DNA of 36,574 nt from an uncultured Bifidobacterium sp. (GCA_964555105.1 CAZKRC010000005.1:1-36574); one strand, 5' to 3'; shown: positions 1 through 16,021, numbered from the stretch's first letter. Program-made: numbers and translations. The notes: generated from the letters alone by a model not told the origin.

Positions 1-177
1 CGTCTGGGCAAGGCGTTCAAGATGGACTACCGCAGGTTTTTGTAGGGGACTCCGCGGCTGATCGGACCGCGATTTCGTATTGCACAAATAGTCAGACTAG
101 ATGTCAAGTACGGTTCCCGATAAGGGGAGCAGGGCAATGGAACGAACGGGGACGCACGCGGATTTGTTTGAGTAGGT

Positions 178-2910
178 TCAAACCCTCGTGAGGAAATCCT
201 CGGCGTTGGTTTCGACCAAGTACCGGGCCGGATTGTCACCTTCGGCCAGCGCCTCGAAGTGGGCTTCTCCGCATTTGAGTTTCGCATTCTCCTCGCCACG
301 TCGTTCTTCCTCGTGCAAGCTTCCTTTGGTTTCGACTACGAAAAACAAGCGTTCAGAACCATCCTTGCTGATGAGGACGGCCCAGTCCGGGAGGTATGGG
401 CCAAGCGGGGTGGGAACTTCGAACCAGCGGGGCAGCTTGGCGAACACCTTGACGGCTTCATTTCGTTCAAGTGATTCGGCAAAGGCCCGTTCGGTTTCTG
501 AATCGTAAATCACATGGTCATACACCGAGCGTTCTGTGGGTATCATGTTCCGCAGGTATCCGACCAGTTCTTTTTCTTCGAACAATTCCTGTGCGTAGTA
601 GTACTCGTCTCCGATTCGCTGGTACTTGATGCCATCTACAAGTGTGAGGCGCTTGCGGCGGAGAATATGGTCCGCAGCGCTCTGGATGAATTCCTGGGGG
701 TTCCTCTGCAGGTCATGCAGGCGACCGCTTTCAGCGAGGATGCGCGCCAGTCCGCGTCGGGTCAATCCCGTCCTGTCTGCGAGCTCAGTCAGTACGTCCG
801 GGACATCGACTACGGGTTCATCAAGAGCGACAGGGGTCGATGTCCCGGTTTCCCGGGAGGAGATGCCGGTATTGTCGATCAGGATGTCGGCTTTCCGCCA
901 TTGAAGGCGTATTCTGCCTATCGGTGGCATCTCGCGGACTGCGCCAATGCAGCTTCGAAGGAGCGTTTCGTCGTCGAACTCGACGCGGTAGGTGGTTCGA
1001 GGTTTGATGCGATCCCAAAGCGCCTTGAACTCTTCCCCGTGCAGGATCGCGCGTCGGGTTTTCACGACGCGTCGCTCATCGGCATCTCGAATCTTCAGGC
1101 GGCCTTCGAATCGTACTCCCGTTTCCTGCTCGATCTCGCGTTGCAGATTCTCGGCGAACTGCTCATAGCTTTCCGATGCGATTACTGTGAGGACGTTCAC
1201 CTCGGGTTCTCGAATACGTTCTCCGTCAGCCCCCACGCACAGCCGAAGACCGCGCCCGATGGTCTGGCGGCGCTCCCGATCGGATCCCATGTCGCGGAGC
1301 ACGCACACCTGGAACACGTTGGGGTTGTCCCAGCCTTCTTTCAGGGCTGAGTGGGAGAAGATGAAGCGCAGCGGAGTGGCCGGGTCAAGAAGGCGTTCCT
1401 TGTCGCGCATGATCAAGGCGTAGGTGTCGTCGTCCGCCTGCGTGTTTCCGCGTGTATCCTTGAAAACTTCGACGGTGCGTCCCGCAGCTTTTTTCCGGTC
1501 GACCGAGAAGTATCCCTTGTGCAAGTCCGAGATCGTATGAGGGGCATCCTGAAGGAGCTCGCGGTAGTCGGGGTGTTTTCTCAGACGCTCGTACTCTTCC
1601 TCGAAAATCATGGCGTACTGCCCCGGCTGGGGGGTTCCGTCTTCATCGAAGCTGCGGTAGCGGTCAACAGTGTCGATGAAGAACAGGCTCAACACCTTGA
1701 TTCCTCGACCCTGCAGCCGTTTTTCCTTATCCAGATGCTCCTTGATGGTGCGTCGGATCATTTCACGCTGAATAGCAAGTGGATCCACGCTGCCGTGAGA
1801 CTCTCCAAGCCCTAAGAATTTGCTGTCACCCGGAAGATTCAGTTCGATGAACTCCTGGCCACGCTTTTTGCTGATCTCACCAATGCTGATTCCACTGTAT
1901 ACGGGGCGACCCGTGATTTGCTCGAGTTTTTCTCCAGACTGAACTGGAATCTCCAGGCGTTTAATGCCGGAAGCGGTATCCACATCGATCTCGACGCGAG
2001 CGGTGACGAGACGAGACGTGCTTTGGATTGACAGCAGTCGCACGTAAGGGCGGTTGTGGTCTCCTGAAAGTGATGCGGAGGCGACCTCGATCTGCTTTAC
2101 GAGCTTGCGCTCGTAGGCATCCACGGCGTTCAGCCGGTAAACCATATGGTGCTTGTCGACATGGGTGGCCGAATAGCGGAGGGCACAGAGTGGGCTCATA
2201 CCCTCAAGGGCGGATTTCCCGGCGCCGCTGAGTCCTCCGTCCACGCTTTGAGGCTCGTCCACGATCAGGATGGGGTGGGTGGCCCGAATGAGGTCGATGG
2301 GAGCCTCATCACCCGTTTTCTCAGTGTCTTTCTTGTAAAGGTTGTTGACGTCCTTCTTGTTGATGGCGCCAACAGTGACGATCATGATGCGAATATGCGG
2401 GCTCGCAGCAAAGTCGCGAAGCTGGCCGAGGCGAGAGGAGTCGTAGAGGAAGAAGTCGCTGGGGACGCCTGAATAAAGGCTTCGGAAGTGTTCCTTTGTC
2501 ATTTGTAGTGACTTGAAAACACCCTCCTTGATGGCGACGGAAGGCACGACGATAACGAACTTGGTGAATCCGTACCGGCGGTTCAGTTCATAGATCGTTC
2601 GCAGGTAGACATAGGTCTTGCCTGTTCCAGTTTCCATTTCCACGGTGAAATCATGAGAAGCCAGAGACGCTGACGTCTCAAGCCCGTTCCGGACCTGAAT
2701 ATCGCGCAGATTTTTGAACAGGAGAGCTTCGGAGATGACCAGCCGGTTTCCCACGCCAAGTTCGGAACCGAACGCGTCGATCTGGCCGTGGTTTTCGATG
2801 CTCGAAACTGTGAATTCCGTTCGCTCGGTTTCCTGGCCGCGGAACAGGTCGCAGACGGCTTCGATTGCCGGGCGCTGGTGATCGAGGTCGGGCTCGAAGC
2901 GGAACTTCAC
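178..2910 (-). CDS. res: Type III restriction enzyme Res subunit (SF2 helicase/ATPase plus C-terminal PD-(D/E)xK nuclease)
   Basis: 910-aa ORF with a GTG start 18 nt after the mod stop. N-terminus MKFRFEPDLDHQRPAIEAV is typical of Res. Helicase motif I EMETGTGKT, motif II ILIVDEPQS, and C-terminal YLPDWAV...FFVVETKG nuclease motif. Confidence 0.9.
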   Translation of the reverse strand: MKFRFEPDLDHQRPAIEAVCDLFRGQETERTEFTVSSIENHGQIDAFGSELGVGNRLVISEALLFKNLRDIQVRNGLETSASLASHDFTVEMETGTGKTYVYLRTIYELNRRYGFTKFVIVVPSVAIKEGVFKSLQMTKEHFRSLYSGVPSDFFLYDSSRLGQLRDFAASPHIRIMIVTVGAINKKDVNNLYKKDTEKTGDEAPIDLIRATHPILIVDEPQSVDGGLSGAGKSALEGMSPLCALRYSATHVDKHHMVYRLNAVDAYERKLVKQIEVASASLSGDHNRPYVRLLSIQSTSRLVTARVEIDVDTASGIKRLEIPVQSGEKLEQITGRPVYSGISIGEISKKRGQEFIELNLPGDSKFLGLGESHGSVDPLAIQREMIRRTIKEHLDKEKRLQGRGIKVLSLFFIDTVDRYRSFDEDGTPQPGQYAMIFEEEYERLRKHPDYRELLQDAPHTISDLHKGYFSVDRKKAAGRTVEVFKDTRGNTQADDDTYALIMRDKERLLDPATPLRFIFSHSALKEGWDNPNVFQVCVLRDMGSDRERRQTIGRGLRLCVGADGERIREPEVNVLTVIASESYEQFAENLQREIEQETGVRFEGRLKIRDADERRVVKTRRAILHGEEFKALWDRIKPRTTYRVEFDDETLLRSCIGAVREMPPIGRIRLQWRKADILIDNTGISSRETGTSTPVALDEPVVDVPDVLTELADRTGLTRRGLARILAESGRLHDLQRNPQEFIQSAADHILRRKRLTLVDGIKYQRIGDEYYYAQELFEEKELVGYLRNMIPTERSVYDHVIYDSETERAFAESLERNEAVKVFAKLPRWFEVPTPLGPYLPDWAVLISKDGSERLFFVVETKGSLHEEERRGEENAKLKCGEAHFEALAEGDNPARYLVETNAEDFLTRV

Positions 2911-2928
2911 GGCTTGTGTTCCGTTCGA

Positions 2929-4845
2929 CTACAGGCTGCGGATCCGCTGCTCGTCGAAGCCGTGCTGGCGTAGAATAGCGGTGAGATTGGCTTTGGAGGC
3001 CTCGTCGGCAAAGGCGTCGTCGCGGAAAACGACGGTACTTTCACTTTTCGGAGCGATTTGCTGCCGCCATTCGGCAATACCGAGCGCGAGCGGTTCAACG
3101 TCCTTGCGGCTGATTGAGGCGGCGAGGCAGGCGAAGAGCGTTCCCTCGCCTGCGTTGCGCACGGTTTTCCCGGTGATGGTTTTTTCTTCGATGGGTGACG
3201 TCAGATCAATGCCGAGGCGCAGGAGTAGTTCAGAGAAAATGTCCGTTTCGCTCCGGTCCGGCTTGATGTGGGTGACATGATCAAGGAGGGATTTTTCCAG
3301 ATTTTCAGGTTTGGAATCCCAAGTGCGGATATTGCTGCTGTCGAGCTTGAACACGCGGAAGCCCGTGTCGCCCTTCCAGTCGGGATTCTCCGCCTTGATC
3401 TTTGCACCCGCGCGCCGGAGGCGCTCTTTCGTCAGTTCTGCGATAGTGTGCGGTTTTCCTATTGAATCACAGAAATCTGCGGCGGCTTTTTGGTCGCTGC
3501 TTTCAATGTCTAGTGGCTCTGGTAACTGCACGACGATATAGCGTCGTGCTCCCTGATCTTTGAAGTTTTTGCTGATAACTGCGTGGCCGAGGGAGCCTGA
3601 GCCCGCAAAGAAATCAAGAATGATATCCTTATTTGATGACGCTACCGAAAGTATTTGTGACAAAAGACGGACAGGCTTCGGAGAGTCGAAGCTGTGAATA
3701 CCGAGTGCTTTAACTTCTTGCCTAGCCTCTTGGTTGTGCCCTACATCGGTATGTTTCCAGATAGTCAACGGTACGATTCCGCTTTTAAGTTCTGACAAAA
3801 AAGTCTTGATGCGGGGGACGTTATTTCCGCTCTTTCCAAACCATATCCGATTGTCGGTTAACAGCTCTTGAACTTTATGCTTTGGCATTGACCAGCAGCG
3901 TCCCTTAGTCGGGAAAATTTCTTTTCCGGAAGGAGTGATTATCGGGTAGTCGTAGGTGGCGCTATATGTGCGCACAGTCATATCCGAAGACGCCCACGGC
4001 CCCCTGGGGTCGTTATCAGGGTTAGAAAATCGCCCCTCGTCACCGGCTCTTCGTTGGATTTTCTGAGGGTTCCATGCCTGCTTCGACTTGGCGTAGATGG
4101 CAATGTAGTCGTGGTTGTCGCTGAACCATTTGGCGTCGTTCTGTGGAGCGAATTTTTTTTCCCAGATGATTGTTGCCACAAAATTTTCATCACCGAATAC
4201 TTCGTCGCAGACCTGACGAAGTCTAGGGTATTCCGTGTCGTCAATACTGATAAATATTGCCCCGTCCTCTTGTAGCAGATCACGTGCAGCTTTCAGGCGT
4301 GGATACATCATGCTCAACCAATTCGTGTGGTATCTACCAGATGTTTCCGTATTCGAAGAAGTAGCCTTCCCGTCCTCAGTCTGCCCGGTCAACTCCTTAT
4401 AGTTCCGGATCCCATCCCTGAAATCATCCGGATACACGAAATCCTTGCCCGTGTTGTACGGCGGATCGATGTAGATGAGTTTCACCTTGCCTGCGTAGCT
4501 CTTCTGCAGCAGCTTCAGAACCTCAAGGTTGTCCCCCTCGATCATCAGGTTCTTCGTCGTATCCCAGTCCACGCTTTCATCCGGTGCCGGGCGTAGCGTC
4601 CCACGTGAGGGAGTCAACGCAAGCTGCCGAGCCTTGCGCTTTCCGAACCAGTTCAGCCCGAACTTTTCATCAGCATCGGTGACAGTCTGGTCGCCCACCA
4701 GCTGTTTCAGGACATCCACATTCACCGAAACGCCCCGCTCACCCTCTGTCACCAGCTCCGGAAACTGGGCCTGCAGCCGTGCAACGTTCGTAGCCTGCCT
4801 TTCGGCCACGCCGCCATCGGAGGGGGAGGGGAAAAGTTTGAGCAT
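2929..4845 (-). CDS. mod: Type III DNA methyltransferase Mod subunit (N6-adenine, beta-class motif order)
   Basis: 638-aa ORF with ATG at 4845. Catalytic motif IV IYIDPPYNTG (aa 124-133) lies N-terminal to SAM motif I DFFAGSGSLGHA (aa 411-422), with about 280 aa between them as the target recognition domain. EGDNLEVLKLLQ box is present. Confidence 0.9.
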   Translation of the reverse strand: MLKLFPSPSDGGVAERQATNVARLQAQFPELVTEGERGVSVNVDVLKQLVGDQTVTDADEKFGLNWFGKRKARQLALTPSRGTLRPAPDESVDWDTTKNLMIEGDNLEVLKLLQKSYAGKVKLIYIDPPYNTGKDFVYPDDFRDGIRNYKELTGQTEDGKATSSNTETSGRYHTNWLSMMYPRLKAARDLLQEDGAIFISIDDTEYPRLRQVCDEVFGDENFVATIIWEKKFAPQNDAKWFSDNHDYIAIYAKSKQAWNPQKIQRRAGDEGRFSNPDNDPRGPWASSDMTVRTYSATYDYPIITPSGKEIFPTKGRCWSMPKHKVQELLTDNRIWFGKSGNNVPRIKTFLSELKSGIVPLTIWKHTDVGHNQEARQEVKALGIHSFDSPKPVRLLSQILSVASSNKDIILDFFAGSGSLGHAVISKNFKDQGARRYIVVQLPEPLDIESSDQKAAADFCDSIGKPHTIAELTKERLRRAGAKIKAENPDWKGDTGFRVFKLDSSNIRTWDSKPENLEKSLLDHVTHIKPDRSETDIFSELLLRLGIDLTSPIEEKTITGKTVRNAGEGTLFACLAASISRKDVEPLALGIAEWRQQIAPKSESTVVFRDDAFADEASKANLTAILRQHGFDEQRIRSL

Positions 4846-4854
4846 CTGGATTAA

Positions 4855-4971
4855 GTTCGCTTTAGCGAACCAACCATGTAGCCAACCCCTCCCGAACCTT
4901 CAAGGCTCGCTATAGCGAACTTAAGGCGCCGTTTTCGCTCCCTGGAACCCTTCAGGTTCGCTTTAGCGAAT
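4855..4971. promoter_or_regulatory. Three phased 16-bp palindromic operator-like sites in the divergent mod / XRE-gene promoter region
   Basis: GTTCGCTTTAGCGAAC at 4855-4870 (perfect 7-2-7 palindrome), GCTCGCTATAGCGAAC at 4905-4920, GTTCGCTTTAGCGAAT at 4956-4971. Centre-to-centre spacing is 50 and 51 bp. Sites 2 and 3 share the 5' flank GAACC(C)TTCA(A)G. Confidence 0.55.
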
Positions 4972-5016
4972 TTCAATCCGCCCAAAACCCCCTAAACTTG
5001 CCCTTAACAGGGGCAC

Positions 5017-5556
5017 ATGATCACTTTACAGGAACTTTTGGGCGCGCGGATCCGGATCTGCATCGAGAAAAACGGTTACCGCACCGTCGAAGAGTTCGCC
5101 TTTGCCTTCAGCATCGGAAAATCCACCCTGAGCGACATCCTCACCGGCAAAAAGAGCCCGACGGTGACCACCCTGGCGCGCTGGGCCAATGCCCTGGGCA
5201 TCCCCCTTGCCGCCTTCTTCGAGGATGAGCGCATCAACACGTGGGTGCGTGAAACCCCGCCCGATTATTTCCAGAATCGGGAAAGACCGTCGGGCGGTCC
5301 CGCCGGAGCGGAGGGGGCGAAGAAGTCACCCCGCTCCCCCCGGGCCCCTCGGGTCCCTAAAGCGCCAAGACGGCTCAGGCCCTCCGAAGGCGCCCTCAAG
5401 GGCCCGGCTTCACCCCCGAAAAAACGGGCCGCTTCCAAAACGGCGAAAGCCACGAAAGCCACGAAAGCCACTAAGGCCGCTAAGGCCACTAAAGCTGCTA
5501 AAGCCGGAAAGACATCCCGGAAAAGAGTCGCGAAGAAAAGCGGTCGCAGGGCCTAG
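5017..5556 (+). CDS. XRE-family helix-turn-helix protein with C-terminal Lys/Ala/Pro-rich histone H1-like tail; candidate R-M controller protein
   Basis: N-terminal 70 aa match the HTH_XRE pattern (LGARIRICIEKNGYRTVEEFAFAFSIGKSTLSDILTGKKSPTVTTLARWANALGIPL). The C-terminal ~100 aa are basic and low-complexity (PRSPRAPRVPKAPRR...AKATKATKATKAAKATKAAKAGK), encoded partly by seven 9-bp repeats at 5443-5505. ATG at 5017. Confidence 0.8.
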   Translation: MITLQELLGARIRICIEKNGYRTVEEFAFAFSIGKSTLSDILTGKKSPTVTTLARWANALGIPLAAFFEDERINTWVRETPPDYFQNRERPSGGPAGAEGAKKSPRSPRAPRVPKAPRRLRPSEGALKGPASPPKKRAASKTAKATKATKATKAAKATKAAKAGKTSRKRVAKKSGRRA

Positions 5557-5592
5557 AAGCGCTTGGAGACGTCTGGAGACGCCCGGTTACAC

Positions 5593-5796
5593 CTAGCCGT
5601 GTTCCTCGTCCGCGCGCGCCACCCGCGGCTTGGACTCGCGCAACTCCTCGAAGAACACCTGAACGAAGACGCGTAGAAACACCGCCACGGTGCGGGCGTA
5701 AAGCGCCGTCAGCCCCGCGAGGCTGAGCAGCACGACCGTCCAGGCCAATGTCCGCGTAAGAGAGCCTTCGGTGCGTGCATGATGCCGGTTGAACAT
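5593..5796 (-). CDS. Small (67 aa) predicted single-pass membrane protein, unknown function
   Basis: Internal ATG at 5796 of track ORF 5593..6012, preceded by GGGAGGAG 4 nt upstream. Product MFNRHHARTEGSLTRTLAWTVVLLSLAGLTALYARTVAVFLRVFVQVFFEELRESKPRVARADEEHG has one clear hydrophobic helix. The upstream part of the track ORF is not protein-like. Confidence 0.45.
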   Translation of the reverse strand: MFNRHHARTEGSLTRTLAWTVVLLSLAGLTALYARTVAVFLRVFVQVFFEELRESKPRVARADEEHG

Positions 5797-6005
5797 GTCT
5801 CCTCCCGTTCGGGAACGACCCCTGACAGCAATGTACAGGGTTGCGGGCGGAGGACAAGCGGTCACCGGGTCCGAAAGTTTCGCAGGCACCCGAATTCCGT
5901 TGGGACGCTCCGTTTGGACATTCCGTTTGGTCAAGGGGGGCTTCCTCCGGCTATATTCCTTGTTGTACGTCAAGCACCACGCAACCCCAACGAAAAGGAC
6001 AACAA

Positions 6006-6506
6006 ATGGCAACAGTGACCCTCAAAGGCAACGCGTTTCAAACCGCGGGCGAACTGCCCTCCGTCGGCTCCAGCGCTCCCGACTTCAAGCTGACCAAGTC
6101 CGATCTCAGCGACGTTTCGCTCAAGGATTTCGCGGGAAAGAAAGTGATCCTCAATATTTTCCCCAGCATCGACACGGGAACCTGTGCCACCTCGGTAAGG
6201 GCCTTCAACAAGGAGGCCAGCGAGCTTCCGGGCGTGGTCGTGGTCGGCGTCTCCAAGGACCTGCCGTTCGCGCTGGGGCGTTTCTGCGGCGCCGAAGGCA
6301 TCGACAAGGTCGTCACCACGTCGGCCCTGCGCGATGATTCCTTCGCGCGCGGCTACGGCGTGACCTTTACGGACGGTCCGCTGGCGGGCGTGTTCTCGCG
6401 CGCGATCGTGGTGATCAACGAGGACGGCAAGGTGGTTCACACCGAGCAGGTCGCCGAGACCGCCAACGAACCCGACTACGCGAAGGCGATCGCCGCGGTG
6501 AAGTAG
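6006..6506 (+). CDS. tpx: Thiol peroxidase (atypical 2-Cys peroxiredoxin Tpx)
   Basis: MATVTLKGNAFQTAGELPSVGSSAPDFKL..., peroxidatic Cys in FPSIDTGTCATS, resolving Cys in GRFCGAEG, about 166 aa. AAGGA sits 8 nt upstream of the ATG at 6006. The track ORF start at 5841 is an unlikely extension. Confidence 0.9.
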   Translation: MATVTLKGNAFQTAGELPSVGSSAPDFKLTKSDLSDVSLKDFAGKKVILNIFPSIDTGTCATSVRAFNKEASELPGVVVVGVSKDLPFALGRFCGAEGIDKVVTTSALRDDSFARGYGVTFTDGPLAGVFSRAIVVINEDGKVVHTEQVAETANEPDYAKAIAAVK

Positions 6507-6600
6507 GCTGGTGCCGCAACGACGTCGGCCGGAGCGGACAGCGTTCCGGCGACCGCGTTGCGGCCGTGTCGGCCGCATGGGCCGTGCTGGCTGTTGGTTT

Positions 6601-6638
6601 GCCGGGGTCTTCCGCGCGCGCGGGGCCCCGGCTTTTTT
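6601..6638 (+). terminator. GC-rich hairpin plus T6, likely intrinsic terminator of tpx
   Basis: GCCGGGG (6601-6607) pairs with CCCCGGC (6626-6632) around a CG-rich loop, followed by TTTTTT at 6633-6638. Confidence 0.5.
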
Positions 6639-6832
6639 CATGTGTCCGTCTTCTTACCCACGGGCATGTTCTTGACGGCCTTGATGCCGAGCTTCAGGAT
6701 GGCCGCAAGCGCCTTGAGGTACAGCAGGAGCAGAGTGAATCCCCCCACCACGAGGAACTTCAGCACGCGCTCGTACAACGGGCGTTCGGGCGTGTGCGAG
6801 TGTGTATGGGAATGCGTGTGTGTACTGGTCAT
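6638..6832 (-). CDS. Small (64 aa) membrane protein with N-terminal alternating His motif (THTHSHTHSHT)
   Basis: ATG at 6832 with GGAG 6 nt upstream (CCAGGAGACGAGCATG). Product MTSTHTHSHTHSHTPERPLYERVLKFLVVGGFTLLLLYLKALAAILKLGIKAVKNMPVGKKTDT has one TM helix and a basic C-terminus. The His tract is encoded by an ACAC/CACA-rich stretch. Confidence 0.55.
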   Translation of the reverse strand: MTSTHTHSHTHSHTPERPLYERVLKFLVVGGFTLLLLYLKALAAILKLGIKAVKNMPVGKKTDT

Positions 6833-7162
6833 GCTCGTCTCCTGGATGAAGGGGGCAAATGTCAGCCGTGCGTTGCGCGACGGGAAGTCCCGTCTTCAAC
6901 CTACACGGATCATGGTGTCCGGGCCGCAATCGTCACGCTCGATTACATACGGTAACACGGAGCCGGGGGAACCGGCGGAACCGGGGGAGCTGGTGGGGGA
7001 GCTTGCCCCGGGCGGAAAGTCGGGGGCAGCCATGACGCCGACGCCGGAGCTCCGCCCGGAGCAAGGGGTGGCACGGTCCGACGGGTGTTTGCTAGAATGC
7101 ATGCGGGAAGACCGCACGCGCGGATTCCGGCGCCCCCGTAATCCTTTTCCCCCGGAGTCTCC

Positions 7163-7771
7163 ATGTCTTCCGCAGTGTCTTCGTCCGCATTCCGGTCCGC
7201 TCTTCCGCCGTCATCTTCCGTTCTGATGCTTCCGGGTTACGGAGGCTCGGGACCGCAGCATTGGCAGACCTTGTGGGAGAAAGAGCATCAGCGCTTTCGT
7301 CGTGTCGAGGCGCGCGACTGGGACCACCCGGTGAGGGGAGAGTGGGTGGGCAACCTGGAGGCTGCCGTGGCTGCCGCGCAGGGTGACGGGCCCGACGTGG
7401 TTCTGGTGGCGCATAGTCTGGCGTGTCTGCAGGTGGCGCATTGGGCGGCCGTGACGCCCTTGACGCATGTGACGACGGTGAAGGGAGCGCTGCTCGTGGC
7501 GCCACCCGACCCCGAGAGCCCCGCGTTCCCGCCCGCCGCGGCGGGCTTCACCCCCCTGCCTCTGTCGCCCCTTCCTTTTCCCTCGATCCTGGTGGCCAGC
7601 ACCGATGACCCGTACGCCTCCACGGCGTTCAGCGAACAGTGCGCGCATGCCTGGGGTTCGCGCCTGGTGTTCATCGGCGCGGCGGGTCACATCAACGCCG
7701 CCAGCGGGGTGGGGGAGTGGGAGGAGGGCAAAGTTCTCTTGGGGGAGCTTTGCCTCTCAATTAAGAGTTAA
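7163..7771 (+). CDS. Alpha/beta serine hydrolase of the YdeN/RBBP9-like family
   Basis: LMLPGYGGSGPQHWQTLWE N-terminal box, nucleophile elbow VLVAHSLACL, then ASTDDPY and GAAGHIN (Ser-Asp-His order), about 200 aa. GGAG sits upstream of the ATG at 7163. Confidence 0.75.
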   Translation: MSSAVSSSAFRSALPPSSSVLMLPGYGGSGPQHWQTLWEKEHQRFRRVEARDWDHPVRGEWVGNLEAAVAAAQGDGPDVVLVAHSLACLQVAHWAAVTPLTHVTTVKGALLVAPPDPESPAFPPAAAGFTPLPLSPLPFPSILVASTDDPYASTAFSEQCAHAWGSRLVFIGAAGHINAASGVGEWEEGKVLLGELCLSIKS

Positions 7772-7808
7772 GAATTAAGAATGGGGAGTGGGGAGTGGGA
7801 GTGGGGAG
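7761..7808. repeat. Heptamer tandem arrays (TTAAGAR)x3 followed by (TGGGGAG)x4
   Basis: ttaagag ttaagaa ttaagaa at 7761-7781 overlaps the hydrolase stop codon at 7769-7771. tggggag tggggag tgggag tggggag at 7782-7808 gives four G-tracts with 3-nt loops, which fits the G-quadruplex consensus. Confidence 0.9.
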
Positions 7809-7865
7809 CGGAAAGGCACGAGGTCGCAGAAGGCGAACGCGTCATTAGGAATGGATCGCAAGGAA

Positions 7866-7905
7866 CATCACAGCATCACAACATCACAGCATCACAACAT
7901 CACAG
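7866..7905. repeat. Octamer tandem array (CATCACAR)x5
   Basis: catcacag catcacaa catcacag catcacaa catcacag, read directly from the sequence. Confidence 0.9.
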
Positions 7906-8015
7906 CAATAGAACGCAGGGAGGTGTGAATTGTCTGTGCGTTGTGTCGTAAGGTCCAAGGCACTTGAACAAGCAAGGCACCTCAATATCCCATAAAGCCA
8001 GCATTCAGTATCTGT

Positions 8016-8095
8016 CTTTACTGCTTTACTGCTTTACTGCTGTACTGCTGTACTGCTGCACTGCTGCACTGCTGCACTGCTTTACTGCTGTGACG
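8016..8095. repeat. Octamer tandem array (CTKYACTG)x10
   Basis: ctttactg x3, ctgtactg x2, ctgcactg x3, ctttactg, ctgtgacg. The array ends 16 nt before the ftsE stop codon. Confidence 0.9.
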
Positions 8096-8110
8096 CCGTA
8101 ACGTCTTGTC

Positions 8111-8824
8111 TCACGTCTCCGCGTGCTCTCCCGGCCCCGTATACGTGCCCGGGATGTCCGTCAAGACGCCGCGGTCGAGGCACAGGCGGCGCACGGGCAG
8201 GTTGCCGGTAAGCAGTTCGTCGTGCGTGGCCATCAGGACCGCCACGCCCGCGAGGTGGATGTCGTGGAAGATGCGCAGGATCTCGACGGAGGTCTCGGAG
8301 TCGAGGTTTCCGGTGGGCTCGTCGGCGAGCACGATCTCGGGATCGTTGGCCATGGCGCGGGCGATGGCGGCACGTTGCTGTTCTCCCCCCGAGAGTTCGT
8401 GGGGGAAACGGCGCGCCTTCGCCGAGAGCCGTACCATGGTGAGCACTTCGTACACGCGGTGCTTGACGCGGGCTTCGGGGACGTTGGCGGCACGCAGGGC
8501 CAGCGCGACGTTCTCGAACACGGTGCGGTCGGGCAGCAGCTTGAAGTCCTGGAACACGATGCCCAGGCGGCGGCGCAGTTTCTGGATGCGCCCGCGGGAA
8601 GGGCGCTTGCCGGAGCGGTACTCTTCGCCGTCTCCGAACGCGATGCCGACCTCTCCGGTATCGGGGGCCTCGTCCATGTAGATCAACCGCAGGATGGTGC
8701 TTTTGCCGGCGCCGCTCGGGCCGGTGAGCAAGACGAACTCCCCGGGGTCGATGGAGAACGACGCCTTGTCGAGGGCGAGCCATCCGCCGTTGTAGACCTT
8801 GGTCACCTGGTCGAACGTGATCAT
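8111..8824 (-). CDS. ftsE: Cell-division ABC transporter ATP-binding protein FtsE
   Basis: MITFDQVTKVYNGG..., Walker A GPSGAGKST, signature LSGGEQQR, Walker B VLADEPTGNLD, H-loop ATHD, 237 aa. The ATG overlaps the stop of the upstream methyltransferase (ATGA at 8821-8824). Confidence 0.85.
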   Translation of the reverse strand: MITFDQVTKVYNGGWLALDKASFSIDPGEFVLLTGPSGAGKSTILRLIYMDEAPDTGEVGIAFGDGEEYRSGKRPSRGRIQKLRRRLGIVFQDFKLLPDRTVFENVALALRAANVPEARVKHRVYEVLTMVRLSAKARRFPHELSGGEQQRAAIARAMANDPEIVLADEPTGNLDSETSVEILRIFHDIHLAGVAVLMATHDELLTGNLPVRRLCLDRGVLTDIPGTYTGPGEHAET

Positions 8825-9774
8825 GCGCGCAATTTCGTTTTCGTGTGGTGCGGAACGGAGGCTTTCACGGCGGGCTTCTGCAGTACGAAGTGCAAACGCT
8901 CGTCGCGATTCGTCCCGGGACTCAAGGTAAAATCAGCAAGGCAGGCGCGCACGTCAAAACCGGCTTCGCGGGCGGTTTTTTTGAGGAAGGACGCGGGCCA
9001 GATGCGCTGGCGATGCACTTCTTCGGTGCGGAGGTAGCGGCCGTCATCCTCAAGCGTGAAGAACGTGAACAGGTTCAGTTGGGTGCGGGAGGCCGCATCG
9101 TAGCGGCTGGTGCGCACCACGGAGCCGGCGCCGGTTTCCTGGAAGTCGAGCGTGTCGGCGAACCAGCGGCGCGAACAGGTTTCGGTGGTGACGTCGAACA
9201 GGAAGATGCCGCCGGGGGTGAGGACGCGCCGGGCTTCGTCAAAGGCGCGCCGCACGGCCTCGGGTTGCGTGAGATAGTTCAGGCTGTCGTATACCATCAG
9301 GACCAGATCGAAGCCGCGTGTTCCCGGGCCGTGGTCGCTCCCGTCACCGTCCTCGCCGTCACGGAACGGGAGGCGGCGCGCATCGCAGGCGGCGCGATGC
9401 GGCGCGGCGGCGTCCTCCACGAGGTCGTGAGAGGCGCAGGCGAGCATCTCCGGGCTCAGGTCGGTGTGGACGGAGAAGACGCCGGGGAACAGGGGGTGGC
9501 GCGCCAGACGGCAGGTGCCCGCGGCGAGTTCGAGAATACGGGTGGGCGTCGGCCCCGGGGGCGTGGAGCGGGGCGCACGCACGGACGGCGTTCCCTTGCG
9601 TTGGGGAAATCCTTCCCCGGGAGCGTGCGCCAGTGTGTAGAGACGACGCAAATGCTGGGACCAGCCCGGGTAATCCACGTGCGCCATCACCGCATCGTAA
9701 TGCACGGCAAGCGACGCGTAGGGTGCGGACAGCAGGGGAGAGGCGTCGGGCGGCGCGTTTCCCCCGCGCTTCAT
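8821..9774 (-). CDS. Class I SAM-dependent methyltransferase
   Basis: Internal ATG at 9774 overlaps the surA-like stop (ATGA). Contains YDAVMAHVDYPGWSQHL and SAM motif ILELAAGTCRLA, then LVLMVYDSLNYL and LTPGGIFLFD. The Arg-rich 70-aa N-terminal extension of the track ORF (to 9984) is not credible. Confidence 0.75.
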   Translation of the reverse strand: MKRGGNAPPDASPLLSAPYASLAVHYDAVMAHVDYPGWSQHLRRLYTLAHAPGEGFPQRKGTPSVRAPRSTPPGPTPTRILELAAGTCRLARHPLFPGVFSVHTDLSPEMLACASHDLVEDAAAPHRAACDARRLPFRDGEDGDGSDHGPGTRGFDLVLMVYDSLNYLTQPEAVRRAFDEARRVLTPGGIFLFDVTTETCSRRWFADTLDFQETGAGSVVRTSRYDAASRTQLNLFTFFTLEDDGRYLRTEEVHRQRIWPASFLKKTAREAGFDVRACLADFTLSPGTNRDERLHFVLQKPAVKASVPHHTKTKLRA

Positions 9775-11279
9775 TCGGGCTCTCCGCCGGACTCGGGGGT
9801 GTCGTCGGCACCGTCGGAGGCGTCCGGTGTGTCGACGGGGCGTGGTTCGACAGCCTCGCCGTCTTCGTTGGGGTCGATGCCGGTGCTTCCGGAGCCACCG
9901 GCAAAAAGCGCGAGGCGGTTGCCGATATGCATCTGCTCGCGCCAGGTCTTGATGAGGCCGGCGATGCGCTCTCCGATCAGCCACTCGCGCGTGTACTGGC
10001 TGATCACGGTGTAGTCCTCCTCCAGCGTGAGGCGTCGTTCGCGGACCTTGTGGTCGAGACGGAAGATGTGCCAGCTGTCGCCGATCAGGATGGGGCCGCT
10101 CACGGCGCCTTCCTGCAGCGTGTCGACCACGGATTTGTACACGCCCGCGAGCGAGTCGCGGGAGAACCAGCCGAGGTCGCCGCCGAGATCGCGCGTCTTG
10201 CGGTCGTCGGAGTGGGTGCGCGCCGCGTTGGTGAAGGCCGCCTGCGTCGTGAGGGTACGGCCGAGGGAGTCGAGCCAGGTGCGCGCGCGCGCGCTGTCGG
10301 CGGCGGCGGGGGTCACCCGGGTGAGGATGTGCGAGGTGCGGATCTCGTTGTCGCGCTTGCCGGTGACGCGAATGAGGTGGTAGCCGAAACGCGTGCGCAC
10401 CGGGCGGCGCGTGTAGTCGCCGATGTCGAGGGCGAAGGCCGCGCGCTCGTAGTCGGCGTCGAGCGTGCCGCGCTTGGTGTAGCCGAGGTCGCCGCCCTCG
10501 CGACCGGAATAGTCGTCGGAGTGCAGGCGCGCCAGTTCGGCGAAGGCTTCGCCTTCGGTGAGGCGGCGGACGAGGGAGAGGGACTTTTCACGCGCTTCCG
10601 TTTCGATGCCGGCGTCCGCCTTGACGCGCCATTGCAGGTGCGAGAGGCGCGCCACGTCGCGTTGCACGGGCAGGCTGTCCTGGTACTTGTCGAAGAACTG
10701 GCGCACCTGCAACTGCGAAGGCTGCGGGTCGCCCACGTATTTCATCTGGATGCGTTGACGCAGGACGTTCTCGCGCACCTGCTCGCCCAGGCGGGCCTTG
10801 AACTGTCCCAGCGACATGCCGGTGGCCTGGCGCAGCGCGGCTTCGAGCTGACGCTCGCCGCCCTGCTGTTGCGCCACGCGGGCGTACATGTCGGCCACGC
10901 GCGCTTCCACCTCGCGGTCGGAAACGTTCAGGGTCGTGTCCTGCCGCGCCTTCTCGAGCAGGACCTTGTCGTCCACGATGCGGTCGAGCGCTTCCTCGCG
11001 CTGCGCGGCGACGCTGAGGGACGCGAAGCCGGGGCGTTGCTGCTGCATGGCCACGCGCAGCTCATCGATTTCCGAGAGCAGGATGGGGCTGCCGTTGACC
11101 ACGGCCGCGATGCCGTCCACAGGGGTGCGCGCGTGCGCGGCCGTGGCCGTCAACCCGGAGACCGCCAGCACCGCCGCGACGGCCAGAAGACGCGCCGTCA
11201 ACGACGGGAAGGCCGTCGCCATCCCCCCCCGCTTCATGTCGGTGGGAGACGGGGACTTCAACGAAATGTTCTGATGCAT
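9771..11279 (-). CDS. surA: SurA-like periplasmic chaperone / peptidyl-prolyl isomerase with two parvulin domains
   Basis: Signal peptide ARLLAVAAVLAVSGLTATAAHA. SurA_N-like LDRIVDDKVLLEKARQD. Parvulin signatures FGYHLIRV and SWHIFRLD. Acidic C-terminal tail. The start may be the MKRGG Met at 11237. Confidence 0.75.
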   Translation of the reverse strand: MHQNISLKSPSPTDMKRGGMATAFPSLTARLLAVAAVLAVSGLTATAAHARTPVDGIAAVVNGSPILLSEIDELRVAMQQQRPGFASLSVAAQREEALDRIVDDKVLLEKARQDTTLNVSDREVEARVADMYARVAQQQGGERQLEAALRQATGMSLGQFKARLGEQVRENVLRQRIQMKYVGDPQPSQLQVRQFFDKYQDSLPVQRDVARLSHLQWRVKADAGIETEAREKSLSLVRRLTEGEAFAELARLHSDDYSGREGGDLGYTKRGTLDADYERAAFALDIGDYTRRPVRTRFGYHLIRVTGKRDNEIRTSHILTRVTPAAADSARARTWLDSLGRTLTTQAAFTNAARTHSDDRKTRDLGGDLGWFSRDSLAGVYKSVVDTLQEGAVSGPILIGDSWHIFRLDHKVRERRLTLEEDYTVISQYTREWLIGERIAGLIKTWREQMHIGNRLALFAGGSGSTGIDPNEDGEAVEPRPVDTPDASDGADDTPESGGEPE

Positions 11280-11282
11280 GGG

Positions 11283-12260
11283 TTACTCTCCCGGCGGCAG
11301 CCGTTCCTCATCCGAAACGGTGTCGTTCCCGGCGTCATCCCTCAGGGGCGGCAGGGTACCGTCCTGTCCGGGGATCTGGTCGATGTTGAGATTGATGGTC
11401 ACGCCTTCCTTGTACTGGCGGATCTTCGACTGCCGCATCTTCTCCTTGTGTTGCATGGAGAGGCGGGCGGAGATGGAGGCGCGGACTTCGGGGAAGGGGA
11501 AGGGGGTGCCGGCCTCGATGCGCTCGAGCAGGCGGACGAGGTAGACGCCGTCGGGGCAGCTCACGGGATGCGAGAGCCATCCCGGGCGTGCGTCCAGCAC
11601 GTCGTGCAGGCAGGTGGGCACTTCGGAGGTTTTGCGGAACAGCGGGTCGAGGAATTCCGGTGCGGAGTCCAGCGAGTTTTTTTCCGCCAGCGCGGCGAAG
11701 TTGTTGCCGCGCACCTTGTTGCGCACCGCGAGCGCGTCCTTGAGCGTCGCGAGGCGGATGTGCATGTAGCGGTATTCGGGCGCCTTGCGGAGAAAGTCGC
11801 TTTTGTTGTTTTCGTAGTAGCGCATCAACGCGCCTTCGTCGGGTTCGACCTCGCCGCCGACGCCGACCTCGCGCGCGAGGAACTCCTCGATGATCATGCG
11901 GCGCTGCAGGCGTTGCAGCTTGCGCTTCATCTGCGGTTCCTGGTCCAGCTTGCGACTCAACGCCTGCTGGTACACCGCTTCATCGTCGATCCAGCGCTGG
12001 ATCACGTTCAGGTATTGTTCGCGTGGCAGGACTTTTTCGTATTCGGCGGGATAGCTCTCGCGCAATTCGTCCAGCGTGAAGGATGCGTCGTTCACTTCGG
12101 CGAGCACGACCGCGTTGGTGTCCTTTTGCTGGCACGCGGTCAGGGCGAGGGTCGCGAGACCAAGGGCACCGACGGCGGCAAGGCGCGGGAAGACCCGAAA
12201 ACGGGGAAAATTGGGGGGATTCACCGCAGGAATATACGTAATTGGGGGTGTCGCCACCAT
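11283..12260 (-). CDS. PpiC/PrsA-type peptidyl-prolyl isomerase lipoprotein
   Basis: ATG at 12260 (MVATPP...). Lipobox LALTAC. Contains YQQALSRKLDQEPQMKRKLQRLQRRMIIEEFL and a degenerate parvulin-like region. The upstream 199 codons of the track ORF overlap mfd and are Arg/Pro-rich junk. Confidence 0.65.
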   Translation of the reverse strand: MVATPPITYIPAVNPPNFPRFRVFPRLAAVGALGLATLALTACQQKDTNAVVLAEVNDASFTLDELRESYPAEYEKVLPREQYLNVIQRWIDDEAVYQQALSRKLDQEPQMKRKLQRLQRRMIIEEFLAREVGVGGEVEPDEGALMRYYENNKSDFLRKAPEYRYMHIRLATLKDALAVRNKVRGNNFAALAEKNSLDSAPEFLDPLFRKTSEVPTCLHDVLDARPGWLSHPVSCPDGVYLVRLLERIEAGTPFPFPEVRASISARLSMQHKEKMRQSKIRQYKEGVTINLNIDQIPGQDGTLPPLRDDAGNDTVSDEERLPPGE

Positions 12261-12310
12261 CGCGGGCCCTATGTTCCAAGGTGGTTCCAGGGAGTGGTTC
12301 CCGGGCGGTT

Positions 12311-15300
12311 TCAGGGTGCCGCGCCGCCGGATGCGCCTCCGGCCCCGGTCATTCCCGTGAGGACCTCCGTGGCCATGCGGGTCAAGGCGATCGGGTCCCC
12401 CCGGCGCGGCGGGTTCAGCGTGACGCTGAACTGCAGGGGTTCTCCGGAGGCCGTGAGGAAACGATACGGGAGCTTGACGCGGGAGGCCATGAGCGTGAGG
12501 TCCTCGCGTGCGGGCAAGTGCTCGTCCGAGAACGTGAGGACGAGGAGGTTCTCGCGCACTTCGGTTTTCCGCACGCCCAGCGTGCGGGAGGCGATGCGGG
12601 CCTCGACCGTCTGCAACAGCATGGCGGCCTCCTCGGGGAGCGCGCCGAAGCGGTCCTCGAGTTCGGCCCGTATGTCGGCGACATGGGCGGGTTCGGTGAG
12701 GCGCGCGATTTTCTGGTACAGCATGGTGCGCTGGGCCGGATCCTCGACGTACTCCTCGGGAAGGAAGGCGTCCGCGGGGAATTCGATCTCGGGATTGAGC
12801 GGCGGGCGGACGGTGGCGCCCTGCATCTCGAGCGTGGCGTCGCGCACCATGCGGCAATAGGTTTCGAAACCCACGGCGGCGATATGGCCGCTTTGCTCGT
12901 GGCCGAGAAGGTTGCCGGCGCCCCGGATCTCCAGGTCGCGCATGGCGATCTGGAAGCCGCTGCCGAGCTCGGTGAACTTCTCCAGCGCGTACAGCTTGCG
13001 CCGTGCGTCATCGGAGAACTTGTTGGCGTCGGGAGCGATCAGCAGGCAGTAGGCCTGGGCGGCGGAACGGCCGACGCGTCCGCGCAGCTGGTAGAGTTGG
13101 CTGAGGCCGAACAGCTCGGCGCGGTGCACGATGAGCGTGTTCGCGTTCGAGATGTCGATGCCCGATTCGATGATGGAGGTGCTGACCAGGATGTCGAACT
13201 CGCGGTGTACGAAGGCGGACATGACCCGCTCCAGCGCGCCCTCCTCCATCTGGCCGTGGGCCACGCCGATGCGGGCCTGGGGCACGAGGCCCTGTACGCG
13301 TTCGGCGATCTCCTGGATGTCCTGCACGCGGTTGTGGACGAAGAAGATCTGGCCGCCGCGCTCCAGTTCGGCCTCAAGGGCGCCGCGGATGACCTCGGGG
13401 TCCCAGAACACCACGCGGGTCTCGATGGGAAGGCGGTTGCGCGGCGGCGTCGCGATCAGGGAGAGGTCGCGCGCGCCGAGCAGGGAGAAGTGCAGGGTGC
13501 GCGGGATGGGCGTGGCGCTGAGCGCCAGCACGTCGACTTCGGCGCGCAGGTCCTTGAGCTTTTCCTTTTGCTTCACGCCGAACTTCTGCTCTTCGTCCAC
13601 GATGAGCAGGCCGAGGTCCTTGAACTTCACGTCCCGGGAGAGCAGGCGGTGCGTGCCCACGAGGATGTCCACCTCGCCGCGTTCCAGCGCGGCGAGGGTT
13701 TCCTTCTGCTCCGCGGGCGTGCGGAAACGGTGCAGGGATTCGACGCGGATGGGCCAGCCGGAGAAGCGTTCGCTGACGGTCTCGTAATGCTGCGCCGCCA
13801 GGATGGTGGTGGGCGCCAGCAGGGCCACCTGTTTTTTGTCCATCAGCGCCTTGAAGGCGGCGCGCAGGGCCACTTCGGTTTTGCCGAAGCCGACGTCGCC
13901 GCAGACGAGGCGGTCCATGGGGCGCAGCGACTCCATGTCTCCCTTGGTCTCCGCGATGGCCTTGGCTTGGTCGGGAGTGAGGTCGTATTCGAAGGCCTCC
14001 TCGAACTCCGCCTGCAAGGGAGTGTCGGGGGAGAAGGCGAAGCCTTGCGCCACCGAGCGGCGGGCGTAGAGCTCGATGAGCTCGCGCACGAGCATGACGA
14101 TGGCCTTGCGCGTTTTCTCCTTGGCGTTCTCCCAGGCCTTGCCGCCCAGTTTGGAGAGGACGGGTACCTTGCCCTCTTCGCTCGAGAACTTCTCGAGTTT
14201 GGCGAGGTCGGTGACGGGCAAGGTGAGTTTGTCCTTGCCTTGGTAGTCGAGCAGGATGCAGTCCACTTCGTGACCGGCACGTCCTCCCACCGGCATGCGC
14301 CGGATGCCCGCGAAGCGGCCGATGCCGTACGTTTCGTGCACGACGAAGTCGCCACGCCGGAGCGCGTCGAAGTCGGGGATGGCAACACCGCCGCCCCGGA
14401 ACTTGCGCTTGCGGGTGCGCCGCGTGACGCGGTTGAAGAGCTGGTGGTCGGTGAGCAGGGCGAGACCTTGCGAACGGTCGATGAACCCGGAGGCCAAGGT
14501 GCCCACCAGCACGCCCTCGATGCCGTACTTGCGGTACGACTCCGCCTGTTTGCCCAAACGCTCCGCCTGTGCGGGGTTCGGACACAACAGCCAGGTGCGG
14601 ATGCCCGCCGCCGACAGCTCCTTGAAGCGCGGCTCGGCGTCGGCCAGGCCGACGCCGTCGCGCGTTTGTGCGTCGACGTCGAACAGCGCGCTGCCGGGTC
14701 CCTCGAACGCGAGGCGCCCGATGAGGAGGGTGCGCCGGGCCTCCAGCAGCGCGTGCACCTCCGTCGCCGCCAGGAACAGCTGCTCCGGTTCATTGACCAC
14801 GCGGCCTTGGGCGCGCGCTTCTTCGTATCCCGCCCGGGCGGCCACGCGGTTTTTCTCCAGGGCCTTCGCGAGACCGTCGGTGTCGCCCACCACGACGCGG
14901 GCCTCGTTGCCCAGAAAGTCGAGCAGGGAGTGGTCGAGCTTCTTGAAGAACGCCTTTTGCCAGTGGATGCCCGCGAGATCGCGCTTGCCCGTGAGGCGAT
15001 GAAGCTCGGCCTCATAGCCGGTCTCGCCTCCGAGCGCGTCGAACTGCTCGAGCAGGCCGGCCGCGATCTCATCCGGGGTGTAGCAGCATTCGTCCTGCGG
15101 CAGCAGGGCGACGGATTCCACGGCGCGCAGCGAGCGCTGCGAGAAAATGTCGAACTCGCGGATGGTTTCGATGACGTCGCCGTCCAGCACGATGCGGTAC
15201 GGGTTGTCGGCCATGAAAGGGTAGATGTCGAGGATCTCGCCGCGCACGCTGAAATCGCCGATGTCCTGCACGGCGGGCTCTTCGCGGAAGCCCAGTGAAC

Positions 15301-15793: not shown

Positions 15794-15810
15794 GGGGGGG
15801 AAAGGTAGAG

Positions 15811-16021
15811 ATTTAAGAATTTGGATTTAAGAATTAAGAATGGGGAGCAGAAGGCACGGGCACGAGGTCGCCATAGGCGAACGAGTCCTGGGGAGTAAAG
15901 GGAAAGCGCGCTGCCCTTCTCCTCTGCCCATGAGGGCTTATGGAGGCAGTTACACACTTTGTTTTACAGACCTTCCCTCTTCCGCGTTCCTTGTGTTCAG
16001 TTCTTAATTCTTAACTCTTAA
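15811..16021. repeat. Composite intergenic repeat element bounded by inverted TTAAGAA-type heptamer arrays; its left module is homologous to 7768-7843
   Basis: 15827-15847 ttaagaattaagaatggggag is identical to 7768-7788. 15859-15887 ggcacgaggtcgcCATaggcgaacgAgtc matches 7815-7843 at 25/29 positions. 16001-16021 ttcttaattcttaactcttaa is the exact reverse complement of 7761-7781. A 14-bp perfect inverted repeat lies at 15827-15840 / 16001-16014. Confidence 0.85.

Follow-up and report, generated by a model that had tools for sequence, protein, structure and literature searches.

Palindromic sites beside a divergent XRE-family gene as probable operators at a Type III restriction-modification operon

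What binds three copies of one palindrome between a Type III restriction-modification (R-M) operon and a divergent regulatory gene, and what would their occupancy do to the two transcription units? The question is raised by a stretch of 36,574 nucleotides from an uncultured Bifidobacterium sp. (GCA_964555105.1 CAZKRC010000005.1:1-36574; hereafter the window), in which three copies of GTTCGCTNNAGCGAAC lie between a minus-strand mod-res operon and a gene for an XRE-family protein with an HTH_3 domain. An earlier note on this DNA had read the arrangement as a switch of the kind run by controller (C) proteins, with three helically phased operators. A comparison with related loci makes it probable that the palindromes are operators of the adjacent XRE protein, through which the protein would regulate its own gene and repress mod-res at transcription start. 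The same comparison leads us to a different view of the third site, of the phasing and of the kinship with C proteins.

The palindromes, at 4855-4870, 4905-4920 and 4956-4971, are real and highly non-random. In particular, matches to GTTCGCTNNAGCGAAC with at most two mismatches occur at these three positions alone in the 36.6-kb window, for an expectation of 0.19, and none of 100 dinucleotide shuffles of the window contains three or more copies. Much of what the earlier note described here is borne out: the three positions, the start-to-start spacings of 50 and 51 bp, the flank common to sites 2 and 3 (repeat families D1 and D2), and the flanking genes, which domain and PADLOC matches identify as a Type III mod and res pair and a divergent HTH_3 gene (Table 1). 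The gaps to the two genes had been given closely, with exact values of 9 bp rather than 10 on the mod side (4846-4854) and 45 bp rather than 46 on the XRE side. The operon has all the hallmarks of Type III, namely an N6/N4 methyltransferase in Mod, an SF2 helicase-like ATPase with a C-terminal endonuclease domain in Res, and mod (4845..2929) followed by res (2910..178) on the same strand across an 18-bp gap.

Seventeen distinct loci, the window included, carry a homologue of the XRE gene; scans of genomes and of metagenomes contributed four loci each, and most loci came from exact-protein look-ups. A Type III mod(-res) lies divergent from the XRE gene in 11 of them (the window, L005, L006, L011, L012, L015, L019, L020, L105, L106 and L112), an SNF2-type helicase in two (L016 and L009) and no R-M system in three (L001, L109 and L111); the remaining locus, L007, has only 79 bp of sequence upstream of the XRE gene. 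The divergent arrangement of regulator and operon is shared by all 13 related restriction loci. Every locus has a family palindrome upstream of the XRE gene. The gap between this XRE-side site and the start codon was measured in 16 loci and is 40-47 bp in 15 of them; in the sixteenth, L111, the start is called further downstream, and a conserved in-frame TTG stands 47 bp away from the palindrome. All 13 loci with a divergent restriction operon (11 Type III and 2 SNF2-DUF4391-Mod-like) have a second palindrome, and none of the three R-M-less loci does; each of these has exactly one site.

The second site is held close to the restriction operon. In nine of the ten Type III loci with a called start, only 4-11 bp separate it from the mod start codon, and the N-terminus of the window Mod aligns with that of the L015 Mod, whose start is 6 bp from its operator. 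The distance is 103 bp in L006, where an out-of-frame ATG nevertheless remains 6 bp from the site; mod as called in L106 includes the site in its 5′ end, and this start is probably miscalled; and in the two helicase loci the site is 44-46 bp from the first gene. The exact core TTCGC-N4-GCGAA was counted in 157 kb of sequence from 16 loci: 22 copies lie less than 200 bp upstream of an XRE start and one lies elsewhere, compared with 0.18 copies in shuffles. This comparison of homologous loci, which the earlier note had suggested, shows that the sites track the XRE gene and that a second site appears only with a divergent restriction operon. The proposal that the XRE protein autoregulates and gates mod-res therefore has good comparative support: a site for each gene, the second only where a restriction operon is present. 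On this comparison, the conserved unit is the regulator gene together with a (G)TTCGC-N4-GCGAA(C/T) site at a nearly fixed upstream distance.

The core of the site was defined over 29 copies as (G)TTCGC and GCGAA(C/T) on either side of an A/T-rich centre of four bases, in which position 10 is always A; the half-sites are 10 bp apart. The palindromic form described in the earlier note is real, as a 6-4-6 core in relatives and not the 7-2-7 core proposed. Mod-side sites average 0.92 mismatches to the consensus and XRE-side sites 1.63, and 15 of 16 tabulated XRE-side sites have a final T. In principle, such palindromes could act as nucleic-acid hairpins independently of the XRE protein, for example as a stabilising or translation-blocking stem-loop in the mod leader. 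The mod leader, if transcribed, does fold at -11.8 kcal/mol (z = -3.7), with site 1 lying 9 bp from the ATG and no Shine-Dalgarno visible. Indeed, no locus has a Shine-Dalgarno-like sequence between the mod-side operator and the mod start (e.g. TTAATCCAG-ATG, CTACC-ATG and ATTT-ATG), and mod is apparently translated without Shine-Dalgarno pairing or from a very short leader. The pattern of substitution, however, points away from a hairpin: in all 29 sites the number of symmetric positions equals seven minus the number of mismatches, and arm changes are never compensated, which is the signature of a protein site. Moreover, there is no Rfam match, the same sequence stands upstream of the XRE gene, where useful transcription is not expected, and the sequence itself, beyond its pairing, is conserved over loci whose XRE proteins are 62-89% identical. 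We therefore regard a hairpin function as very unlikely. In L011 the mod-side palindrome (664-695) has 15-bp arms (CATGGTAGGTTCGCT TT AGCGAACCTACCATG), and the mod start codon lies inside this inverted repeat.

The conservation of the protein matches that of the site. Residues 1-85 of the regulator are modelled by AlphaFold2 as a five-helix XRE helix-turn-helix (HTH) domain with one extra helix, with a predicted local distance difference test score above 90 over residues 1-70, dropping to about 50 from residue ~90. Homologues are 62-89% identical over the first 93 residues, and four residues of the presumed recognition helix (K35, T37, L38 and S39) do not vary among 36 homologues, which fits with an invariant operator. 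A different factor could in theory occupy the sites, either a host protein or Mod itself, in the manner of the SsoII/Ecl18kI-type methyltransferase repressors, and autoregulation of divergent promoters by a methyltransferase is known for Type II systems (PMC2760811; review). The motif, however, is constant over loci whose Mod proteins fall into 3-4 unrelated classes with different N-termini, and it persists in loci without any Mod, which makes binding by another factor extremely unlikely.

Two sites, not three, are the family norm. The intergenic region of the window aligns end to end with those of L011, whose XRE protein is 89% identical, and L012, except for 51 extra bases, and the alignment supports a correspondence between operator 2 and the one XRE-side operator that L011 and other two-site relatives have. 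The extra bases form a unit (4921-4971) resembling the one before it (4871-4920); the alignment score of the two was reached by none of 1000 shuffles, and by 31 of 1000 with the palindromes left out. The duplicated unit comprises a promoter -35-like hexamer and an operator. Together, the 51-bp gap in relatives and the resemblance of the units indicate that the third site is a lineage-specific, diverged duplication and not a family design, contrary to the earlier view of the three sites as a designed architecture. Operator 2 would then be the ancestral XRE-side operator, and the duplication of ~51 bp would have created operator 3 and moved the divergent promoters apart. Two degenerate operator-like sequences could be relics or chance resemblances: TTTCGCTCCCTGGAAC at 4933-4948, with four mismatches, within the duplicated spacer, and CTTCGCGGAAGCTAAC at 6068-6083 of L001, with three mismatches, between glyQS and a gene for a 261-residue protein.

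Helical phasing is likewise not a property of the family. Centre-to-centre spacings in relatives are 27, 31 (three loci), 33, 34, 36, 46 (two), 49 and 50 (two) bp, with angular offsets of -154 to +154 degrees. Since these spacings cover every phase, neither phasing nor a cooperativity of fixed geometry is conserved, and the earlier suggestion of phased, cooperative binding or looping is not sustained. Even in the window, a common DNA face is approximate at best: with a helical repeat of 10.5 bp, the 50- and 51-bp spacings correspond to offsets of -86 and -51 degrees, respectively, and sites 1 and 3 are ~137 degrees apart. The conserved feature is the distance of each site to its own gene.

Candidate promoters suggest how occupancy of the mod-side site could act. 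Sigma-70-type candidates with at least 8 of 12 consensus positions are found in L012, L006, L015, L019 and L020, and each places the mod start in the mod-side operator or at most 3 bp before it. In particular, L012 and L006 have TTGAAA/TTGACG-17-TACCGT/TATGTT (8-9 of 12), with the start inside the mod-side operator. On the mod strand of long-spaced loci, TTGAAG, TTGAAA or TTGACG lies beside the XRE-side operator and is followed, across a 17-bp spacer, by a TA-initial hexamer 0-4 bp before the mod-side operator; in short-spaced loci, TATATT or TATGTT lies between the operators and the XRE-side operator fills the spacer. In the window, the hexamers matched to these by homology of position (Table 1) are weak; they would put the mod start near 4866, within operator 1, placing site 1 at about -4 to +12 and site 2 at about -39 to -54; the flank CCTTCAAGG common to sites 2 and 3 would be the -35-like hexamer of this putative promoter. 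A mod start in or beside the mod-side operator, as these hexamers predict it, is the geometry of a repressor.

The XRE side is less conventional. No sigma-70-type promoter passes the scans on this side in any locus, and the XRE strand has no recognisable -35. A CCCCTA sequence after the site is invariant in all 12 aligned loci; it opens the CCCC-TAnnnTTG motif (CCCCTAAACTTG), which is not a general motif of the window. The distance from the site to the TAnnnT of this motif (4993-4998 in the window) was counted in four loci and is 21 bp in each. Read as a -10 region, this motif would put the XRE start near 5005 and operator 3 at about -49 to -34, centred at -41.5. The latter is the position used by lambda cI at OR2 and by class II activators, and the placement of operator 3 would also fit occlusion. 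A small stem-loop (Table 1) that immediately precedes the XRE start codon is present in 11 of 11 loci, each folded separately, with differing arms (TTGCCC/GGGCAA, TGGCC/GGCCA, TGCCG/CGGCA and TTCGCCTC/GAGGCGAA). Its 3′ arm is purine-rich and Shine-Dalgarno-like.

From these elements we propose the following scheme. A regulator dimer would bind each palindrome. At site 1 the dimer would cover the mod-res transcription start or the early leader and repress the whole operon; at site 3, near -41.5 of a promoter without a recognisable -35, it would autoregulate by activation, as lambda cI does at OR2, or by repression. As mod-side sites match the consensus best, they should fill first. In a cell newly entered by the locus and free of regulator, expression of mod-res would at first be unchecked and would then be brought down to a low, steady level. 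With mod and res in one operon, such a circuit would set the dose of the whole system and not the order of methyltransferase and endonuclease; by the same token, the regulator could not time restriction against methylation as C proteins do.

Several observations weigh against this scheme. No sigma-70-type promoter passes the scans in the window, which is why its promoter positions are taken from relatives, and the candidate mod -10, TACATG, lacks the final T. The 5′ arm of the stem-loop overlaps the presumed XRE -10 (CCCC-TAnnnTTG), in conflict with a start near 5005; either the XRE start lies further upstream or the inverted repeat acts as DNA. In L006, L016 and L009 the second site is 44-103 bp from the first gene and not adjacent to it. 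Finally, the regulator and its own site are kept in the three R-M-less loci, and its gene shows conserved chromosomal synteny and host-like base composition at third codon positions (GC3); the protein may therefore have a role beyond R-M control.

The last point is also the core of a different explanation, that the XRE protein resides in the chromosome as an autoregulator and has nothing to do with restriction, that cassettes land beside it in a variable hot spot and that the extra palindromes are auxiliary, without effect on mod-res. The gene order glyQS ... XRE-AhpC-Ser_hydrolase-ABC-SurA-Mfd is common to seven loci (the window, L001, L011, L020, L106, L109 and L111). In composition, mod-res is foreign and the XRE gene host-like: GC3 is 0.67 in res, 0.62 in mod, 0.77 in the HTH part of the XRE gene and 0.75-0.90 in chromosomal neighbours, and GC is 0.53-0.57 in mod-res and 0.64-0.69 in the neighbours (178-4845 versus 5017-16000), with the compositional boundary located in the operator region. 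Unrelated classes of Mod and Res also occupy the same position. These facts have to be set against the distribution of the second site, which is present in every R-M locus and in no R-M-less locus, and which keeps its 4-11 bp from the mod ATG over three unrelated Mod classes, whereas the interval between it and the XRE-side site ranges from 27 to 51 bp. Pairing of XRE gene and restriction operon also occurs outside the shared synteny (L005, L015, L105 and L112), which counts against mere coincidence at a hot spot, and at least one R-M-less state can arise by deletion. Specifically, a Mod N-terminal remnant of ~25 codons, with 72% identity to the L012 Mod, survives at 1581-1655 of L109, 6 bp from the single operator there, which makes this locus a deletion derivative; mod-res was possibly lost there by collapse between the two palindromes. 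We consider a resident regulator without a part in restriction unlikely. Upstream of the XRE gene, the R-M-less loci have a gene for a 261-residue hypothetical protein (L001), small open reading frames and DUF2283 (L109), or glyQ directly (L111).

If the palindromes are operators of the XRE protein, one regulator would serve several kinds of cassette. Mod and Res fall into 3-4 classes with 25-37% identity between classes (the window, L015 and L105; L011, L005, L019, L106 and L112; L020 and L006; and L012), and the XRE tree is incongruent with the Mod tree, with XRE proteins 62-89% identical. The partners of the regulator comprise at least three unrelated Mod/Res classes and an SNF2-DUF4391-methylase system. 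In L016 the latter is an operon (1-5866) of a 1067-residue SNF2-type helicase (best PADLOC match 'HKD+Snf2'), DUF4391 and a methyltransferase 51% identical to the window Mod; in L009 a helicase homologous to that of L016 (2-2665) is cut by the contig end. The constancy of the XRE protein, the variety of Mod/Res classes, the synteny and the GC3 values together suggest that regulator and operators behave as a stable module beside cassettes that are exchanged or lost. A further step, which we offer tentatively and hold to be rather doubtful, is that the locus is a host-anchored 'docking platform', in which a resident XRE gene, promoter region and mod-side operator are fixed and unrelated cassettes enter by recombination, are swapped and are deleted exactly at the junction of operator and start codon. 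Every restriction system arriving there would thereby come under one and the same repression from the host side, and the controller would belong to the host locus and not to the R-M system, reversing the usual logic of C proteins.

The family is narrow and known only from uncultured lineages. A phmmer search of 1.84 billion representatives returned 3 clusters at E <= 1e-30, a number that rises to 8 at E <= 1e-10, and the metagenome-assembled genomes of relatives carry the labels Sumerlaeota and Fibrobacteria. No phage homologues of the regulator were found, and plasmid homologues are generic only, at less than 40% identity; three distant homologues at 35-40% identity (L010, L013 and L014) have no Mod or Res nearby. 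PADLOC matches of the regulator to HTH_VI, PDC-M69A and RmrA were set aside as generic HTH matches. We also rejected a dispersed repeat or phage element as the origin of the palindrome: its 84 exact matches in IMG/VR have no neighbouring XRE homologue and, except in one contig, occur singly, a count judged, without formal calculation, to be within the range of chance.

The window regulator is long for its family. Lengths range from 101 to 202 residues and are mostly 101-130, since most tails are shorter. The tail of the window protein, residues ~90-179, is disordered and basic (33% lysine plus arginine, 23% alanine, 12% proline; isoelectric point 12). These 91 disordered residues (5281-5556) are histone-H1-like and derive in part from a 9/18-bp tandem repeat at 5444-5506 (KATKATKATKAAKATKAAKAGK). 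A basic tail is present in all homologues, usually of 15-40 residues, and reaches 90-115 residues only in the window, L011 and L007.

Table 1. Features of the window at and around the operator region
Feature	Coordinates	Strand	Description
res, Type III restriction subunit, 910 aa	178..2910	-	PF04851 ResIII and PF19778 RE_endonuc; NF012027 E 1.6e-104; PADLOC REase_III 1114 bits
mod, Type III methyltransferase, 638 aa	2929..4845	-	PF01555 N6_N4_Mtase; PADLOC MTase_III 768 bits, residues 17-634
Operator 1 (mod-side)	4855..4870	.	GTTCGCTTTAGCGAAC; 0 mismatches, perfect palindrome; 9 bp from mod ATG
Putative mod-res promoter	4873..4901	-	-35-like TTGAAG 4901..4896, 17-bp spacer, -10-like TACATG 4878..4873; placed by position homology with L011, L012 and L006
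Operator 2	4905..4920	.	GCTCGCTATAGCGAAC; 1 mismatch; adjoins -35-like hexamer of putative mod promoter
Unit of ~51 bp bearing the third operator	4921..4971	.	Diverged tandem copy of 4871-4920; D2 repeat; 51-column gap in L011 and L012 in the alignment
Operator 3 (XRE-side)	4956..4971	.	GTTCGCTTTAGCGAAT; 1 mismatch, final base T; 45 bp before XRE ATG, 21 bp before conserved TAnnnT
Conserved CCCC-TAnnnTTG motif	4989..5000	+	CCCCTAAACTTG; putative -10 region of XRE promoter
Small stem-loop directly before XRE start codon	4998..5015	+	TGCCCTT-AAC-AGGGGCA; -9.1 kcal/mol versus -2.5 +/- 1.8 for shuffles
XRE-family regulator, 179 aa	5017..5556	+	PF01381 HTH_3, E 1.2e-9

Beyond the regulator and the operon, the flanks vary as well. 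The slot downstream of the regulator is a second variable position: AhpC occupies it in the window, HigA/Gp49-like pairs in L105 and L112, Xre_MbcA_ParS_C-RES pairs in L019 (6413-7275) and L109 (2171-3084), the antitoxin in L012 (5441-5908) and RES alone in L006 (7378-7800). Just past res, a second, unrelated and convergent HTH_3 gene is found in L015 (70-453) and L020 (1046-1477). DUF2283 genes recur at the boundary past res (L020, an 8.2-kb contig and L109), and the window end falls inside that boundary.

A conserved regulator with a clear operator would offer a testable transcriptional circuit for Type III systems and a compact operator-repressor pair for experiments. As a natural example of one regulatory module serving several unrelated restriction cassettes, it would also bear on how defence islands could exchange cargo without losing control of toxic genes. 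This significance is bounded by the narrowness of the family and by its confinement to uncultured lineages.

Control of Type III expression has so far been described in terms of separate promoters, delayed res translation, possible antisense RNA and phase variation (reviews). Dedicated transcription factors are described for Type II systems and, for Type I, in one case in Mollicutes (HsdC, PMC5282649) and as RptR (PMC12255303); for Type III we found none in the searchable literature, including reviews to 2025, a body of text that leaves most subscription journals outside. RptR (2025) and HsdC are the nearest precedents outside Type II. Like the window regulator in the scheme proposed here, RptR is a small dedicated repressor with a conserved site, linked to a non-Type II R-M system, with three repeated promoter sites and repression of the whole operon; by its published description it differs in standing at the head of the same operon, in binding TAGCTA direct repeats, and in belonging to a Type I system of Gammaproteobacteria. 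HsdC is likewise an XRE/C-like repressor of a non-Type II R-M operon, some members of which have three spaced repeats, but it is encoded within its Type I operon, uses direct repeats and comes from a different lineage.

Defence operons with a divergent repressor gene and palindromic operators across the promoter are also known, in CapH/CapP and BrxR/CapW, and the N-terminal domain of CapH is among the fold matches of the regulator. Unlike those systems, neither the window nor the related loci have a CapP-type metallopeptidase beside the regulator, and the regulator has no WYL sensor domain; in place of an obvious signal-sensing module, it has only its disordered basic tail. It also differs from the Xre-RES and Xre-MbcA-ParS antitoxins, as it lacks PF09722 and is followed by AhpC and not by a RES gene.

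Among the closest functional parallels, too, are C proteins of Type II systems. C.Esp1396I (PMC3488213, PMC2691842) is a small XRE-type regulator with several palindromic operators graded in their match to the consensus, which controls its own and the methyltransferase promoter, the best site repressing the methyltransferase. There, however, the three operators are OM, OL and OR, the C gene precedes the R gene and is co-transcribed with it, OL and OR are adjacent and cooperative (a 35-bp C-box), and the M gene is convergent. Here, a monocistronic regulator gene diverges from mod-res, the sites are single palindromes 27-51 bp apart with another motif, the system is Type III and the protein has a long basic tail. 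Circuits of the C.Kpn2I and C.EcoRV type (PMC6237814; review PMC12707154) share with the window the placement of sites in a short region between divergent promoters and, with the scheme proposed here, repression by exclusion or roadblock of RNA polymerase near the start, and a promoter balance shifted by occupancy; they are Type II circuits with the C gene upstream of the R gene, in which M alone is repressed, whereas here mod and res would be repressed together.

These parallels raise the question of whether the window holds a classical C-protein circuit, with a promoter that is first activated and then repressed and an endonuclease delayed relative to the methyltransferase. The fold would suit it: the protein is a small XRE/lambda-cI-like HTH protein, its Foldseek matches are XRE proteins, C.BclI, C.AhdI and C.Esp1396I among them, and site 3 is at a class-II activator position relative to the putative -10. 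The similarity, however, is no better than that to unrelated XRE proteins, for a profile of the family matches C.BclI (E 0.11) and C.AhdI (E 0.38) in the PDB below 1y9q, Lp1 protein 11, ClgR, HigA and SinR. C genes lie immediately upstream of the endonuclease gene and are co-transcribed with it; here the regulator gene diverges from mod and is read from the other strand, and res comes after mod, co-oriented, with one promoter region for both. C proteins bind adjacent OL/OR boxes of ~35 bp directly upstream of the C gene; here single 16-bp palindromes have a core unlike the GACT/AGTC-type boxes, and the protein, at 179 residues, has a basic tail absent from C proteins. We give a classical C-protein circuit only a slight chance. 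Membership of the C-protein family is thus not supported, given the divergent gene, the lack of an OL/OR C-box and a similarity to C proteins no better than that to ClgR, SinR and other XRE proteins: the system would work like a C protein, yet it stands outside that family as defined.

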